DNA from: a virus
Strand: one strand, 5' to 3'
DNA: 64,000 nucleotides
IMG/VR virus record: IMGVR_UViG_2511231141_000002
This document shows positions 7,864 through 55,821 of the stretch, one piece after another. Position 1 is the stretch's first letter, and the number at the start of each line of letters is the position of its first letter. Made by a program: the position numbers and the translations under genes. The notes beneath the pieces were generated by a model, which was not told the origin of the DNA, did no database searches, and worked only from the letters and a program-made list of their open reading frames with translations.

Positions 7864-7936
7864 AGCCCGCGACAGGACTCGAACCTGCAACCGGCCGCTT
7901 ACAAGGCGGCTGCTCTGCCTGTTGAGCTACGTGGGC
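7864..7936 (-). tRNA. tRNA-Thr(UGU), CCA not encoded
   Basis: GCCCACG acceptor with one mismatch, GCTC/GAGC D-stem, GCCGC-CTTGTAA-GCGGC anticodon arm, GGTTCGAGTCC T-arm. Confidence 0.92.
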
Positions 7937-50004: not shown

Positions 50005-50385
50005 GTGATCCGAGGGTGATCCGAGCGTGATCCTAGGATGATCCTAGAGTGATCCGAGTGGTGTTAGTCTAGAATCCCTTGTGCTGTAAGGGATTCTGGA
50101 GTATGATCCGAGTGATCCTAGCCAGATTTACGGTTGAGAAGAAATGAGTGCTTCGATTCGTTTACAAATAGTTACTGTCGTCGAGTCATGGGTTAATATG
50201 GATAAAGTTGCTTGTAAATGGTATCGAAACGAATCGAAGCAGCAATTTTATAGAGATGCGTTTTCGACCCCGGATCACTCGGATCACACCCCGAGATCCC
50301 TTGTGGCACAAGGCTTCTCGGGATTTTGCAGATAGGAGCAATCTAGGAGCAGCCCCGGATCATAGCGCCTGTTGCTCGGATCACG
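50005..50385. repeat. Putative replication origin: RTGATCCKAG iterons
   Basis: Five copies at 11-bp period (50005-50058), two more at 50103-50121, inverted copies at 50270-50385, AT-rich spacer, two flanking hairpins. Confidence 0.75.
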
Positions 50386-50387
50386 TC

Positions 50388-50621
50388 TCATGATGCATCC
50401 TCCAATTTGGTGGCTTGGGCTAGGCGCTTAAGGGCTTGGGTGATCTCCACCTTCATCGGCAGCAGCCACTTCTCTCGGAATTCAAGCCACTCTTCTTCGC
50501 TGTCGAACCCGAGCCTCGGGTCGATGATCGGCACGATGTGGTACATACCGTTTTCCCATCTCAATGTGGCTCCGCCACATCGGGAAGCATTTAGCGTCCA
50601 ACCCAGCGTGTCATCACTCAC
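50388..50621 (-). CDS. Hypothetical protein (frame stays open upstream through WDPRPDL)
   Basis: ORF track; true start uncertain. Confidence 0.55.
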   Translation of the reverse strand: MSDDTLGWTLNASRCGGATLRWENGMYHIVPIIDPRLGFDSEEEWLEFREKWLLPMKVEITQALKRLAQATKLEDAS

Positions 50622-50793
50622 GACCTGAGTCAGTAGGACTTCCCACAGTCTGTGGTCGCTGACGAGATCCGGTCGCGGGTCCCAACGCCAATCATGTGCG
50701 CATGAAGTGATGCTCTCACCACCTGTTATTCGTCGAAATGCGTGTGAATCCTACCACTAAATCTTCCAGCCAGTACGACACATTGTGATGTCC

Positions 50794-50919
50794 GCTGTTT
50801 TCACCCGCTACCACGGCGGGCAGCGCACAGCGGACGAAGCGGCCATGCCTTGCCATAGCTTACCTTACCACACCACGCCTCGCCTGGCCGAACCGCGCCC
50901 AGCCTAGCCTCGCCATGCC
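50794..50919 (-). ncRNA. GGY-NN pentamer RNA C (16 units + structured 3' tail)
   Basis: 15/16 units GGY; NN = AT GA TA TG GC TC CA GA GT GT AA AA AT AA AT CG. Confidence 0.85.
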
Positions 50920-51382
50920 ACGTAAGGAGTTAGGGCAGCGTGAGTTCTCACCCGATGGCGTCCCGACAGGCGCGAACGTGTCTGAAGCGCGGAACACTCG
51001 CTTTTGCCGTGTCCCACGATTTTGCGCCTGCCGAACGCCACGGTCGGGCGGTGCCTCCGCCGCCCGGCGCAGCGCACGAACTGCTTGGGACAACAGCGCG
51101 CATCAGGCGCGTAATGATGCAGCTCGCGCGCCGGGCACGGCGGCGGAGAAAAGGGTTCTGGGATTATTCAGTTGCCAAGGTCCGCTCTGACGCGGCACAT
51201 CGCCTCATGAGTGTTCATATCGTGCTGTCGTGACGGCGATACGACCCGCGCCGGGAACGCGCGCTCGGCGTCCCTGGTGTCATTGGTGTGGGCGTCGTCA
51301 GACACCCGAGAGGGTTCGCCCCTCCACTCTGTACCGAAGACCTTCGGTACAGGGCGCAAGGGCGAGGGCCTTGCGCAAGCCA

Positions 51383-52009
51383 TTAAAACGGCTTCCAGTA
51401 TGGTTTGATGTCAGGGAACCGCGTCCTGCCGTGTTGGCCGCTGTTCATCAAATCCGCCAAACTCGGACCATCGGTCGGAATCCCAATAGCGTCATACCCC
51501 GCCATGAGATTCGCGCTGACGATGAGCAGGCGCTCAATCATCAGGTCAGACAGGCGATCCTGCAGACGGTGAGCGGCATCGATCAGAAGCTTCGCCTGCT
51601 CTGTCCTCACGTTAAGCTCCATGACTTTCAGTTGTTTATCCGCTACCTCGCACTGCTCGCGACGTTCAGGCGTCTCGTACTTGCCGGTCTTGCGGATGGA
51701 GGGCAAGACTTCGTGGGTGACCCAGCGCTTAAAGGCCTTCGCCTCAGGCTTGCGGCTGCCCAAGATCAGTGAATACAAACCGGCTTCGTTGATGATGGTC
51801 ATGTTCTGTTGACCGCCGGGGGTGTGAATTGAACTCACACCCTTTTCATCCTCGTCGATCCGCTCCAAGGCTTTACGATCCAACTCAAGAATCACAAGCA
51901 CGTCAGCAGCCACCCACCACGGTTCATCGTTAATCATGACGACTCGGATTCGATGGCCTTTGAACATCCATTCCATCGTTTGGTTTCCGCTCTTGTCCAC
52001 AGGTTGCAT
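51383..52009 (-). CDS. BRO-N domain antirepressor
   Basis: RIRVVMINDEPWWVAADV...INEAGLYSLI..SRKPEAKAFKRWVTHEVLPSIRKTG. Confidence 0.93.
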   Translation of the reverse strand: MQPVDKSGNQTMEWMFKGHRIRVVMINDEPWWVAADVLVILELDRKALERIDEDEKGVSSIHTPGGQQNMTIINEAGLYSLILGSRKPEAKAFKRWVTHEVLPSIRKTGKYETPERREQCEVADKQLKVMELNVRTEQAKLLIDAAHRLQDRLSDLMIERLLIVSANLMAGYDAIGIPTDGPSLADLMNSGQHGRTRFPDIKPYWKPF

Positions 52010-52096
52010 GGTATCCCTCCTGAAGATCTTGCGATTAGAAGTTGCCATTTCGGTCTGGGCCGAAAAGATTCGACCCATGGCGCAAGGGCGAAACGC

Positions 52097-52303
52097 TCAA
52101 CGCACCAACCTCAGTCGTTCTACGGCTCTGTAGATCCCCCATCCCGCCAGAATGAACGGATATAACGCTATGAGCACAAGCGCCGCGAAGAACACTCTGA
52201 CAAACCACATCAAATCTTCGTTGTCCCAGAGTTTGATCAGAACAAGAGCCAAGACGGCACCTAATAGATCTCCTCCAATAACCGCCAGCAGATATTCCGC
52301 CAT
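52097..52303 (-). CDS. Small 2-TM membrane protein
   Basis: Hydrophobic ORF. Confidence 0.6.
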   Translation of the reverse strand: MAEYLLAVIGGDLLGAVLALVLIKLWDNEDLMWFVRVFFAALVLIALYPFILAGWGIYRAVERLRLVR

Positions 52304-52319
52304 AGATGACCACCAAATC

Positions 52320-52655
52320 CTACACCGGAAGCTGCAACCCCCGACACCCGATCACCCTGCCCTCTTCGTCCAGGATGGCCTCCGCAGGGCTAAACACATC
52401 CGTTCGCCCCGCCCTCGCCGCAGCCTGCGCCACCAGCGTCGAGGCGACGTACACCGTGTCCTCCTCCGGATCCGGCAACTCGACAACTTCACCAAACTCC
52501 GTGCTGAAGACCGGGATACCATCAAGCACATCAATTTGCTTCGATGTGCTCGCCACCCGTGCCACGATGCCAGAAGGCGGGATTCGTGCGATGGTAGTTC
52601 CATCCGAGCCGATGAATGTGAGTTCGTGTGGTGTCAAATTGACAATCCGATGCAT
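52320..52655 (-). CDS. NLTPH-family protein (possible Crn4-like ring nuclease)
   Basis: NLTPH...VARV...LP.P...YVASTLVA...R.D...GRVIGC; AAGGAGG RBS; function from recall only. Confidence 0.5.
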   Translation of the reverse strand: MHRIVNLTPHELTFIGSDGTTIARIPPSGIVARVASTSKQIDVLDGIPVFSTEFGEVVELPDPEEDTVYVASTLVAQAAARAGRTDVFSPAEAILDEEGRVIGCRGLQLPV

Positions 52656-52742
52656 GCTATTGTCCTCCTTGGTCCGATTTCTGTCGCATCCTCAAATTCC
52701 TAATCAACCTCGTAGGAGCCTTCTTTTCGCGCCCCTCCGCGC

Positions 52743-52827
52743 GGCGCTCAAAGTACGGACTCGAACCGCAAGTCTCCACGGGGTGATCAGTCCCGTGTCA
52801 ACCGTGCCGCCTGCACCTTTGAGCGCC
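52743..52827 (-). ncRNA. tRNA-like cloverleaf element (not a canonical tRNA)
   Basis: 11-bp acceptor-like stem, GTGC/GCAC arm, CACGGG/CCCGTG arm, TGCGG-TTCGAGT-CCGTA T-arm. Confidence 0.55.
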
Positions 52828-52908
52828 CGGCGCAGGGGCGCGCCCTGCGCGCTCTCTAGGCGTTGACAAAGGGAGGTTCACCCACTGTAACAGTGGGCTA
52901 TGGTGCCG

Positions 52909-53140
52909 GCTGTTTTCACCCGCTACCACGGCGGGCAGCGCACAACCGGCGAAGCGACCATGCCTTGCCATAGCCTGCCGAACCTGACCACGCCTCAGCC
53001 CGCCTCACCAAGCCATTCCAGACCCTACCCCACCGAGGCTTGCCGTGCCACACCCGGCCATGAACGTTGGAGCGGTTCTTCGCCGCCCCGACCCGCCTCC
53101 GAGACACCTCGGAGACACGTCGCGGAAGCGAAGCTTCCGC
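52909..53140 (-). ncRNA. GGY-NN pentamer RNA B (leader + 21 units at 52955-53059 + tail)
   Basis: 17/21 units GGY; NN = CG GT AC AA TC GG AG CT AT TT GA GG GA GT CA TC AG AT AA AT CG. Confidence 0.87.
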
Positions 53141-53149
53141 TCAAGGCAC

Positions 53150-53770
53150 TCACTCCACGTCGTCCTCCAACACCTTATACTCCACCACCTGAAATCTTCC
53201 AAACATTGGCCTATAATCTCCAATTCCAACCAACCTTCCCGCTTGAACCAGTAGGTCATAGAGCAGTTCCGGACTGATATATTCTGGAAGAAGACACTCA
53301 ACTTGAAATTCAACTTCCCACCCTGGTAACAGCGCTGGACGAACCCTGGTAACTCCCGCTCGTTGAACTAAAACACGGCGTCTATCAAGAAAGTCTGGTT
53401 GTGCTTTTCCCATTGAAGCCAGCCACGGCGTCACGATAAATGCAGCTTTAGATAAATCTGACATTGACTTTCTTGGCGAGCGAGGATCCTGCTTGAACTT
53501 CGCCGCGTTCACGAGCGCCTGATGCAGGTAGACACCGGGAATGCAGATTTCGCCGTCTTCGTTCCGGTAAAGGTACGCTTCCCAGTTGTCCGTCTTCTTC
53601 ATCGCGCTGCCCTTGGCGGCTTGCGCCTTGGCTTCAACATCCTCACAGTCCCATCGATGGAATAATATAGGCGTCGATCCCTTCAGTCGCACAGCCGCCC
53701 GATACGGCGTCGCGAAACGAACATTGTCTCCGTCAACCGTGTAGCCTATAATGGTATTGGCAACCGACAT
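53150..53770 (-). CDS. RAMP/Cas7-like RNA-binding protein (Vipr-like)
   Basis: VRLKGSTPILFH first strand, CIPGVYLHQAL (cf. RAMP YIPGSSLKG), C-terminal G-rich loop GRLVGIGDYRPMFGRF; flanked by GGY-NN tracts. Confidence 0.8.
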   Translation of the reverse strand: MSVANTIIGYTVDGDNVRFATPYRAAVRLKGSTPILFHRWDCEDVEAKAQAAKGSAMKKTDNWEAYLYRNEDGEICIPGVYLHQALVNAAKFKQDPRSPRKSMSDLSKAAFIVTPWLASMGKAQPDFLDRRRVLVQRAGVTRVRPALLPGWEVEFQVECLLPEYISPELLYDLLVQAGRLVGIGDYRPMFGRFQVVEYKVLEDDVE

Positions 53771-53831
53771 TCGTCTTTCACCCTTTCGTTTAGGATGGAG
53801 CGGCGCGAACGCCGCTCTTTTGTTGTTCCCG

Positions 53832-54030
53832 GCTAATTTCAGACACTACCTCGGTGTCCAGCGCTCAACCGGGGAAGCGGCCATGCCACGCTCTACCACG
53901 CCGAACCATGCCACACCATGCCCCGCCTCGCCTGGCCAGGCCACGGCAAGCCATACTTTTGGAGCGACCTTCGCCGCCCCACGCCACCCCCGAAGGATTC
54001 GGAAGTGGTGTGCGGAGGCGAACCCTCCGC
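53832..54030 (-). ncRNA. GGY-NN pentamer RNA A (leader + 15 units at 53878-53952 + tail)
   Basis: 13/15 units GGY; NN = TT GT CT CA GA GG AT GT AT TC GT AG GT AT CG. Confidence 0.87.
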
Positions 54031-54033
54031 TGT

Positions 54034-54861
54034 TCATGCTGTTTGTCCGGCTGTTTCGCCTTGTTGTGTCTCTTCTGTTGACGAACCATTGGAGTTCTCC
54101 ACGTTGACTTGCAGATAATCTTCAATCCCCACCGTGATCGATTTGTGCCGTGCTTCAAGCTCTTTTCCTATCGACACGACGCGGTACTTTTCCGCTGGAG
54201 TCAATTCCCGAAGTATCTTCGGAGGTTGCAATTGACTCCATACGAACGCGCCATTTCGTTTTGTCTCCAGCGAAAGTTCGATTTCATAACTGCTCACCAG
54301 TTGACCACGAAAGCGAAGCGCGCTGACAAATTGATCCCACGCCCGATGACTCGAAGGTGGCAGTCCGAGAATCGCAGGCACTTGCGAATTTTCTTCCAGA
54401 AGATAGATTCGTCGAACGGTTTTGCATGCTTTCCCTCTTCCACCATTCGGATCACTACCAAACTGATCAAACGGACAACCCTGACACTTTCGATATGAAA
54501 TGAGTCCATCGTCCGCAACGTAGCGTCCGATCTTGCCATCGTGACTCGTGCAGAGCGGCGGCGCACTTTCACCTTCGTTCTGAGGCGCAAACAGCACTCG
54601 ACTTGTGTGAAAAAACGGGATTCTGACTCTTAATTTCTGAATAATTTCTCCAGTTGCCTCGTTTTGGAAGGCGGCCGCTTGCGCAACGATCCGATATCTT
54701 ACGGGAAGAATTTCGGCGTTCTCTTCCAGTTGCGCGGCATCTTGCATGGTCTCAGCGTATTGTTCGAGTGAGATTCCTTGAGCTTCGAGCTCCTGCGCCT
54801 GTTCGACCGTCAACCCGAGCTTCTGAAGCAGATTCGGATCGTACTGTGCCAGTGTGGTCAT
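54034..54861 (-). CDS. Phage protein, putative Zn-binding ssDNA-binding/annealing factor
   Basis: C.S.DG...CQGCPFDQFGS...GKACK..RRIY...LPPSS; follows the exonuclease. Confidence 0.6.
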   Translation of the reverse strand: MTTLAQYDPNLLQKLGLTVEQAQELEAQGISLEQYAETMQDAAQLEENAEILPVRYRIVAQAAAFQNEATGEIIQKLRVRIPFFHTSRVLFAPQNEGESAPPLCTSHDGKIGRYVADDGLISYRKCQGCPFDQFGSDPNGGRGKACKTVRRIYLLEENSQVPAILGLPPSSHRAWDQFVSALRFRGQLVSSYEIELSLETKRNGAFVWSQLQPPKILRELTPAEKYRVVSIGKELEARHKSITVGIEDYLQVNVENSNGSSTEETQQGETAGQTA

Positions 54862-54894: not shown

Positions 54895-55821
54895 TTACGC
54901 TGTCTCAGTGAGTTCGTCATGCGTTGTCGAACTGACGAAGAACATCGACTCTCGTGCACCTTCCACACCTAGGCAGAGTGGAAGGAATGGACAACCACCA
55001 TATTGATGGCAATTACTGGTATTGTGACGAATCACACCCGAACGCGCTTGCCAATTGCGTTCCAAGCACTCCATCCAAAGTTCGCTTTCAAACTGTTTGA
55101 TCTGTTCTGGGGCTCGGATCACCTCGTCTTCTGACAAGTACTTGTCGGGGTTCGACTCGTACTCCGCCAGGAGCCGGTCCCGGAAGTCCTCCCAGGTTTC
55201 CACCACCTCTCCATTGCGCCGTTTGGGTTCCATGCGGCTCTTCTGCACAGCTCTCACGATTGCACCTGCAATCGGCCTGTCGAAGACCCGCGACGCAGCA
55301 TATACATATAATGTTAATTGTTGGGACATACCGTAACTCTGTTTGAACTGTTCGATGGAGGCCGTGGTCTTGTTCTCAAGAATCCACAGGTTTCCATGTT
55401 CATCTTCGCAAATCCCATCGATCTTTCCGCCCAGCGCGTACTTTCTCGACTTGTGCCCGGTGGCGGGATTCAAGATTGGAATTTCAAACTCTCTCTCAAC
55501 CGCTACCAACCGTCGCGGCTTGAAATGTCGAACTGCGAACCGAATCATGCATTCGGTGCGGATGCGCTCAAGCTGGAGTTTGTACCGCTCCTCTTCACTC
55601 TCTGGCCGGATCCAGTCCAGCGTCTCCAAGCCCGTCCTCACCGCACCGTCCTCGTCAACCTCGCCCCGCTGCCACAACTCCAACCCCCGATGCCACGCGC
55701 TTCCAATTGAGAGCGCCCAGGAGACCTCGCGCGGGCGAAGACGTTCCACATAGTGGTAGTGTTCTTTCTGCGGGCACTGCTGCCGCATCGCGATGCGGCT
55801 GTGTGTCAGTAGTTCCACCAT
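54895..55821 (-). CDS. PD-(D/E)XK exonuclease (RecB/Cas4-like fold, recombination)
   Basis: CPQKEHY, GSAWH, GKIDGI...ENKT, C..Y..CPFLPLC. Confidence 0.88.
   Translation of the reverse strand: MVELLTHSRIAMRQQCPQKEHYHYVERLRPREVSWALSIGSAWHRGLELWQRGEVDEDGAVRTGLETLDWIRPESEEERYKLQLERIRTECMIRFAVRHFKPRRLVAVEREFEIPILNPATGHKSRKYALGGKIDGICEDEHGNLWILENKTTASIEQFKQSYGMSQQLTLYVYAASRVFDRPIAGAIVRAVQKSRMEPKRRNGEVVETWEDFRDRLLAEYESNPDKYLSEDEVIRAPEQIKQFESELWMECLERNWQARSGVIRHNTSNCHQYGGCPFLPLCLGVEGARESMFFVSSTTHDELTETA

Follow-up and report, generated by a model that had tools for sequence, protein, structure and literature searches.

The 64,000-nt viral sequence analysed here (IMG/VR record IMGVR_UViG_2511231141_000002; "the window" denotes this whole stretch) contains a prophage early operon, entirely encoded on the minus strand, in which a tRNA-like RNA element (52728-52842, minus strand) lies between guide RNA B of a VIPR system and a crn4-type ring-nuclease gene. 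The element consists of a cloverleaf on top of a long helix. Comparative analysis confirmed that it is a real, evolutionarily conserved and selected RNA structure with a tRNA-type elbow, formed on the transcribed strand; it represents a well-supported family of structured RNAs from thermoacidophiles, not present in Rfam, and it is not a working tRNA. As for its role, the reading that we favour, with a probability of about 0.45, is that it may act as a tRNA-mimic punctuation module of the polycistronic early transcript, which host RNases would cut, leaving a stable small RNA.

VIPR systems were described only in 2026, with hammerhead ribozymes being mentioned for one type in connection with the release of guides from long transcripts. 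A natural comparison is available within one genome, since the same guide precedes the cloverleaf in one of its prophages and a plain hairpin in the other; this makes it possible to ask whether host tRNA-processing enzymes join in the maturation of VIPR RNAs and what the tRNA shape adds. Moreover, the element is a structured RNA with a conserved loop that adjoins the gene of a putative anti-CRISPR ring nuclease.

Fold and conservation of the element

The minimum free energy (MFE) fold of 52729-52851 is the cloverleaf, with -74.6 kcal/mol and z = -4.65, and none of 200 shuffled sequences was equally stable; the cloverleaf remains the MFE structure both at 60 C and with 140 nt of additional flanking sequence. 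An earlier note on this DNA had proposed a set of cloverleaf arms on the minus strand, lacking a CCA end, and all of them are present. The parts of the element and its flank are:

52827-52817, minus strand: 5' strand of the acceptor-like stem, GGCGCUCAAAG, 11 nt; 7 pairs of this helix (helix 1) change on both sides
52753-52743, minus strand: 3' strand of the acceptor-like stem, CUUUGAGCGCC, pairing with GGCGCUCAAAG over 11 bp; no CCA follows
52816-52804, minus strand: D-like arm GUGC-AGGCG-GCAC, 4 bp, with a 5-nt loop containing GG
52803-52771, minus strand: long anticodon-like arm, GGUU/GACU, GA/GA internal loop, CACGGG/CCCGUG, loop A-CUGAUCA-C
52797-52777, minus strand: apical part of the long arm, CACGGG/CCCGUG and loop A-CUGAUCA-C (CUGAUCA at 52784-52790)
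52770-52754, minus strand: T arm UGCGG-UUCGAGU-CCGUA, with a covarying stem and a tRNA-canonical loop
52829-52842, minus strand: segment 2, 5' strand of the base helix, CGCGCCCCUGCGCC; the same sequence is found at the base of plain hairpins elsewhere
52728-52742, minus strand: segment 3, 3' strand of the base helix, GCGCGGAGGGGCGCG; its GGAG gives a G.G mismatch and has the look of a Shine-Dalgarno sequence
52843-52850, minus strand: segment 1, GCGCAGGG, upstream partner of segment 2 in an alternative 8-bp hairpin

The acceptor-like stem is not free, as it continues through a 2x2 internal loop into a conserved base helix of 12 bp that includes the G.G mismatch. Two alternative pairings had also been claimed for this region, and both can be drawn: 52829-52842 can pair with 52728-52742, forming the base helix, or with 52843-52850, which pairs with CCCUGCGC in the base-helix 5' strand to give the 8-bp hairpin (-16.1 kcal/mol). 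In the MFE fold the base helix is favoured over this hairpin between segments 1 and 2.

Fourteen copies of the element were identified, nine in six Alicyclobacillaceae genomes and five on metagenome contigs. The genome copies were obtained by BLAST against 101 related genomes, followed by a search with a covariance model, R1, over 45 Alicyclobacillaceae genomes; the nine full copies span three genera and 6 of these 45 genomes, and the covariance-model search gave no full copy beyond them. When 185,579 species, each represented by one genome, were scanned with a pattern, 19 stretches were returned, 16 of which are coding-sequence noise; the three true copies all belong to Alicyclobacillaceae, namely A. 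fructus, A. macrosporangiidus and a metagenome-assembled genome. The scan of metagenomes gave the five further copies, scoring 108-122 bits and all of the A. acidocaldarius type. Nothing was found by a strict pattern search of IMG/VR for the element, and no similar DNA was found in the phage collection.

Covariance in homologues, one of the checks that had been named beforehand, gave a positive result. In the alignment of the nine genome copies, on which RNAalifold was also run, 93.9% of the cells are paired, compared with 36-49% when the partners are slid, and compensatory changes on both sides are found in 17 of the 38 pairs, a score that none of 500 shuffles reached. Because the family is narrow and the copies are related, these covariation counts overstate independence, while the slid-partner control is clean. 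Changes on both sides affect 6 of the 8 pairs of helix 4, in the long arm; the D-like arm (helix 3) shows no covariation because its sequence is nearly invariant. The model scores 133 bits on the sense strand and 44 bits on the antisense strand and the structure contains many G.U pairs, which together place it on the transcribed strand.

The loops barely vary, reading RGGYG in the D loop, UUCGAGU in the T loop and YUGAUCA in the anticodon-like loop. Across the copies, little or no variation is seen in the T loop GGUUCGAGUCC and in the D-loop GG. TGATCA is invariant in the nine aligned genome copies and present in all five metagenome copies, in which its presence was preset by a search pattern that required it. 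The arm carrying this loop is built differently in the two clades, as 4 bp, a 2x2 loop and 6 bp in one and as 10 bp with a small closing stem in the other, yet its length of about 12-14 layers is approximately equal in both. The acceptor stem measures 11 bp in the window copy and 14 bp in genus 10.

Comparison with tRNAs and other structured RNAs

Scoring against Rfam as a tRNA, also a check named beforehand, gave no tRNA match: RF00005, whose gathering score is 29 bits, does not match 52300-53400 or 52715-52860 even at E <= 10, and no other member of the tRNA clan in Rfam matches the element at this cut-off. The sole tRNA that ARAGORN and Rfam recognise in the window is a tRNA-Thr at 7864-7936. 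ARAGORN makes no call at the window copy, while it labels three homologues, in odd registers, as tRNA-Ile(gat) (L049 6030-6102, L051 6029-6102 and L052 2929-3012). These labels indicate that Alicyclobacillus annotations may carry false tRNA genes at the element, which is thus prone to be mis-annotated as tRNA-Ile.

Compared feature by feature with a tRNA, the element retains the elbow and departs elsewhere. In place of a 7-bp acceptor with a free 3' end and CCA, it has a stem of 11-14 bp that runs into the 12-bp helix and lacks CCA. In place of a 5-bp anticodon stem and a 7-nt loop with U before and a purine after the anticodon, its anticodon-like arm is about twice the tRNA length, and the window copy reads C-U-GAU-C-A, that is a GAU anticodon-like loop with C at the place of the purine of tRNA position 37. 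The T arm, conversely, has 5 bp and a loop of the UUCRANY type (UGCGG-UUCGAGU-CCGUA), the D loop contains GG (AGGCG), and the four-way junction with its covarying stems is kept; G-UUCGAGU-C is what we take, from comparison with the textbook consensus, to be the canonical T-loop sequence of tRNAs. The description of the element as a tRNA mimic given in the earlier note holds for T loop, D-loop GG and four-way junction, and fails for the acceptor, the CCA end and the anticodon arm, which are not those of a tRNA. A true tRNA is rejected on the grounds of the failing acceptor and anticodon arms and of the missing Rfam and ARAGORN calls at the window copy; a tmRNA is also rejected, as ARAGORN and Rfam detect none here. 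Descent from the host tRNA-Ile(GAU) or another host tRNA was rejected as well, since local alignment with all 65 host tRNAs gave the universal T-loop match only.

Several known systems offer points of comparison. In mitochondria, tRNA shapes between transcript units (tRNA punctuation, with the so-called t-elements) are the marks at which RNase P and RNase Z cut. The element likewise places a tRNA-shaped structure between functional units of one long transcript, but it belongs to a bacterial prophage, and one junction of the operon has the tRNA shape while others carry plain hairpins on the same base helix. In bacterial Y RNAs (YrlA), too, the two flanks, 5' and 3', make up a long stem bearing a module of tRNA-type D and T arms; in the element, differently, the long stem continues from the acceptor arm. 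YrlA, with its tRNA-like domain, binds Rsr/Ro60, and YrlA-type RNAs reportedly occur in some phages too. The TROVE/Rsr domain (PF05731) was not found in the 99.99%-complete genome, while control genomes gave matches, and a Y RNA was rejected because of this missing gene and of the lack of an Rfam Y RNA match.

The base of the element resembles the RNase III stems of rRNA flanks and of the early mRNAs of T7 and SP82, since a mismatched helix of about 22-25 bp recurs between early genes and encloses a structured RNA. The geometry fits a helix of at least ~20 bp, as recognised by RNase III, with 12 bp of base, the 2x2 loop and 11 bp of acceptor; the conserved G.G mismatch and the alternative partner offered by segment 1 have no counterpart in the known RNase III sites.

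A closer likeness of shape is found in mascRNA, at the 3' end of MALAT1 / MEN-beta (RF01684), where a cloverleaf lies inside a longer transcript directly after a structured non-coding RNA, with a degenerate anticodon arm and an acceptor extended by pairing between leader and trailer (PMC8457004). The mascRNA is eukaryotic and its cleavage by RNase P and RNase Z has been demonstrated, whereas that of the element is predicted; furthermore, the element differs in its acceptor of 11-14 bp running into the 12-bp helix and in the long arm with the invariant loop. RF01684 gives no match at the window copy, and only the G023 copy reaches sub-threshold scores, 17.1 bits for mascRNA (threshold 42.5) and 16.6 bits for tRNA-Sec (threshold 47). 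Finally, VIPR arrays interspersed with hammerhead ribozymes have been described (10.64898/2026.04.26.720920), and they provide a precedent for guide release by built-in RNA structures. Here too a structured RNA stands beside a guide and could release it, but the element matches no Rfam ribozyme family and is absent from the Vipr relatives examined. The word "tRNA" is absent from the main text of the 2026 VIPR preprints.

A shared boundary hairpin and the possible roles of the element

The base helix is not specific to the cloverleaf, as its two strands (5' CGCCCYUGCGCC and 3' GYGGAGGGGCG) also enclose plain 25-nt hairpins. One of them lies in the window:

51317-51364, minus strand: plain 48-nt boundary hairpin, just after the BRO gene, scoring 35 bits against model R1

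Further plain hairpins on the base helix occupy equivalent places in a sibling prophage, in a plasmid and in genomes G011 and G023. Inter-cistronic hairpin sites of 48-53 nt recur at 51317-51364 and 52079-52095 in the window and at L052 2588-2640, L051 6714-6761 and L050 5245-5292; this recurrent hairpin, which combines the conserved base with GGAG (G.G mismatch) in its 3' strand and with an upstream partner for an alternative hairpin, may serve as a signal for processing or stability that is specific to phages. In G010 (L070 14-109) the base helix carries yet another kind of insert, 63 nt long and containing UUGAUCAAG.

The sibling prophage belongs to the same genome (G000:C1, at about 1.80 Mb; locus L002, G000:C1:1799454-1802501), and its guide B, tail and spacer are 100% identical to those of the window up to window position 52823. 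There, a plain hairpin on the same base helix is directly followed by the BRO gene, and both the cloverleaf and crn4 are missing. Cloverleaf and plain hairpin are thus interchangeable at one junction, and the presence of an identical guide B next to a plain hairpin implies that the cloverleaf is not needed for guide release. Window and sibling diverge exactly inside the boundary hairpin, so that a mosaic (recombination) boundary separating phage modules falls on the conserved helix.

No sigma-70-type promoter and no intrinsic terminator were predicted on the minus strand across 50200-54200, and none was predicted for the element in the G024a locus either. The result for 50200-54200 suggests that the guides and the mRNAs probably derive from a single precursor and are separated by processing. 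In the punctuation that we propose, the boundary hairpin formed by segments 1, 2 and 3 would mark the junctions between operon units; at the junction between guide B and the crn4 mRNA its tip would be replaced by the four-way junction, with the D-loop GG docking on the canonical T loop. Structure-specific host RNases would then excise the element, with the elbow and the acceptor/T stack directing RNase P or RNase Z, and RNase III would act on the rod of about 25 bp made by base and acceptor helices. After the cut, segment 1 could fold onto segment 2, capping the 3' end of the upstream RNA, the purine-rich segment 3 with its GGAGG would become the 5' end of the downstream mRNA, and a heat-stable tRNA-like RNA of about 85-115 nt would be set free. 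The invariant YUGAUCA loop, at a fixed distance from the junction, suggests that this RNA might have a second role in trans. In mascRNA, processing by RNase P tolerates an extended acceptor stem (PMC8457004).

A number of observations weigh against this reading, above all against its simplest form, in which the element would be a tag for guide processing. The element lies about 75 nt past the tail of guide B, with two further hairpins in between, and it has no counterpart next to guides A and C of the window. In 8 of the 14 copies a GGY-NN array is found about 135 nt upstream of the element, the rest having no intact array on that side; this is the case for 4 of the 9 genomic copies, which counts against an essential function in guide processing. 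In G042, G024a and G024b, where an intact array is missing, the element is preceded by a DUF669 (SSB-like) gene and an AT-rich stretch; in G023 it comes after a small open reading frame (ORF). Vipr relatives with 52-57% identity are found on eight IMG/VR contigs, and neither the element nor a tRNA is present at the 11 loci with Vipr relatives (eight from IMG/VR and three from genomes), so that the idea of a tRNA-like element generally associated with Vipr genes was rejected (0 of 11 loci examined). Together with the hairpin of the sibling and with guides A and C, these loci indicate that the tRNA shape is not required for guide release. RNase P normally cuts 7 bp from the junction, and in the genus-1 copies the acceptor helix continues unbroken through this position, with neither a single-stranded leader nor RCCA. 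Moreover, if the element served for processing alone, there would be no need for an arm of conserved length with an anticodon-like loop that never varies. The element may hence serve as the processing tag for the guide transcript suggested in the earlier note, though not as an essential function.

The relation with the guide is indeed one of neighbourhood: VIPR guide RNAs (vrRNAs) are made of tandem GGY-NN units and a tail, while the element has no 5-nt repeat and is not part of the guide. Tail-like remnants (CAGCCGGYACC and CCUCCYUUU) were seen in G023 and beside a degenerate extra copy in G024b, and they are weak in G024a and G042. This degenerate second copy of G024b (L055) lies about 700 nt upstream of the intact one, behind vipr and after a guide tail devoid of array.

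Since the invariant loop is the main feature left unexplained, a somewhat unlikely alternative stays alive, namely that the base helix alone punctuates the transcript and the cloverleaf is a tRNA mimic acting in trans, an accessory small RNA of a conflict island that includes VIPR, Crn4 and BRO. It could act as a decoy or sponge for a factor recognising the elbow or the anticodon loop, such as RNase P, a modification enzyme or an anticodon nuclease, the last of which was also suggested in the earlier note, or it could dimerise through the UGAUCA palindrome. The conservation of the YUGAUCA loop above a covarying stem, the length of 12-14 layers reached by differently built arms, the substitution by a plain hairpin with no loss of the guide and the occurrence of decayed or replaced versions (G024b, G010), expected for an accessory cargo, all agree with this view. 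In addition, 5 of the 9 genomic copies are followed by a Crn4-like gene at a distance of up to about 0.7 kb, and the sibling lacks both the element and the Crn4 gene. However, the association with Crn4 is partial and Crn4-like proteins are widespread in bacteria without this RNA; the arm is much longer than the anticodon arm of tRNAs, so that it would hardly deceive enzymes that take their measure from the elbow, and TGATCA is not enriched in the window (17 occurrences versus 22.5 expected). The more specific proposal that temperate phages of thermoacidophilic Firmicutes have a dedicated small RNA with a tRNA elbow, cut out of a generic processing helix between cistrons and acting in trans via UGAUCA as a decoy, sponge or kissing-loop dimer, appears rather unlikely; if true, such an RNA would be a member of the phage conflict arsenal beside the VIPR guides and the Crn4 anti-CRISPR ring nuclease.

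The two pairings available to segment 2 raise the question of a regulation in cis, in which the choice between the 1:2 and the 2:3 helices, biased by the folding of the cloverleaf, would act as a kinetic switch that exposes or hides the GGAGG of segment 3 and so sets the stability or the translation of the downstream mRNA. The hairpin between segments 1 and 2 can form in six of the seven variants tested, with -12 to -20 kcal/mol, and it shows a compensatory change, CAGGG/CCCUG becoming CAAGG/CCUUG in plain-hairpin copies. Among the 21 instances listed, segment 3 reads GYGGAG in 20 and GCGGAA in the other, thus keeping GGAG despite the G.G mismatch that it causes, and segment 1, unlike the mismatched segment 3, retains a C able to pair with segment 2. 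A conserved stretch resembling an anti-Shine-Dalgarno sequence (ACCUCCCUUU or CCAUCUCCUU; 52871-52880 in the window, and in the L052 and L055 flanks) lies about 25 nt before the boundary helix, and it could pair with the GGAGG of segment 3; the CCUCC(C)UUU motif is also found ahead of the copies in G023 and G024b. Nevertheless, the cloverleaf copy of G023 is unable to form the alternative hairpin, the base helix far exceeds this hairpin in stability and belongs to the MFE fold in every context tried, and segment 3 is not followed by a start codon at a usable distance. The Shine-Dalgarno sequence of crn4 itself, AAGGAGGA, lies about 60 nt downstream and outside the switch, and a switch would have no need of a tRNA elbow. 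Regulation of this kind is therefore clearly unlikely; of the riboregulator of the next gene envisaged in the earlier note, the alternative hairpin, maintained with compensation in most copies, is what survives, against its absence in one copy and the position of the crn4 ribosome-binding sequence.

Even less probable is a link with replication, by which the RNA, or the same strand as single-stranded DNA, would be part of the origin or priming apparatus of the primase-helicase module downstream. The element is always located 1.1-4 kb upstream of a primase gene of about 1040 aa and, in G024a and G024b, directly before a small conserved gene, fam6; in genus 10 an AT-rich stretch is found just upstream, and a 7,907-bp plasmid, essentially consisting of this replication module, has kept the element. 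Its retention on the plasmid is not specific, however, since the whole contiguous segment was kept; the element is missing from the sibling prophage, whose primase module is the same, and the canonical T-loop and D-loop sequences of tRNAs have no known role in DNA origins. Lastly, a decaying and now functionless phage gene for tRNA-Ile-GAU, which the C-U-GAU-C-A loop, the three ARAGORN labels and the frequency of tRNA genes in phages might evoke, is most improbable, as 17 compensatory pairs across three genera and invariant loops testify to ongoing selection on a non-tRNA shape, the extended acceptor stem and the long arm are common to both clades, and no specific likeness to tRNA-Ile or other host tRNAs exists beyond the universal T loop.

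The early operon and its neighbouring genes

The operon contains, in order, a PD-(D/E)XK exonuclease, a 275-aa protein, guide A, the 206-aa Vipr, guide B, the element and the 111-aa Crn4-type protein, followed by a 68-aa membrane-type ORF, a BRO-N anti-repressor, guide C, a small conserved gene, and primase and helicase. Features on the upstream side and directly downstream of the element are:

54895-55821, minus strand: PD-(D/E)XK exonuclease
53150-53770, minus strand: vipr gene, 206 aa, matching SUSP1 Vipr (PDB chain 36pp_D, E = 1.6e-7) and phrog_4652
52905-53059, minus strand: VIPR guide RNA B, with 21 GGY-NN units (52955-53059; 17 of the 21 are GGY) and a structured tail
52861-52897, minus strand: spacer between guide tail and element, with the hairpin CCCACUG-UUA-CAGUGGG and then the conserved ACCUCCCUUUGUCA
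52320-52655, minus strand: crn4-type ring-nuclease gene, 111 aa, directly downstream of the element

The assignment to VIPR is based on the Vipr match with 36pp_D, on the GGY-NN arrays and on an architecture like that of the 2026 preprints, in which a Vipr gene is accompanied by GGY-NN guides with structured tails (10.64898/2026.04.26.720920). The predicted structure of the 111-aa protein (predicted local distance difference test, pLDDT, 96.9) was matched by Foldseek to 9r7b with E = 8.5e-11, a template modelling (TM) score of 0.73 and 34% identity; on the strength of this model, it is likely a phage anti-type-III-CRISPR enzyme with a Crn4 ring-nuclease fold. Crn4-like proteins form a family of about 300 members, for which no Pfam model exists, widespread in bacteria that do not have this RNA. 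A dedicated protein partner of the RNA was rejected for the 111-aa protein, given its Crn4 fold and a family distribution that exceeds the range of the RNA. Pfam and PHROGs searches on the neighbouring small genes revealed nothing relevant to the RNA.

In all nine genomic copies the element is on the gene strand and always between the recombination genes and the primase, within a constant synteny that comprises the exonuclease, the 275-aa gene, sometimes vipr, the element, variable small genes, a conserved gene of about 100 aa and the primase. One copy is carried by the 7,907-bp plasmid of G002 (L050, the whole contig G002:C4), a circularised segment of this prophage type, which contains a truncated 275-aa gene, a solo guide without vipr, the element, a Crn4-like fusion gene, BRO, small genes and the primase. 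In the window, the 68-aa hydrophobic ORF between crn4 and BRO (52097-52303, minus strand), starting with MAEYLLAVIGGDLLGAVLALVLIKLW, probably encodes a small membrane protein.

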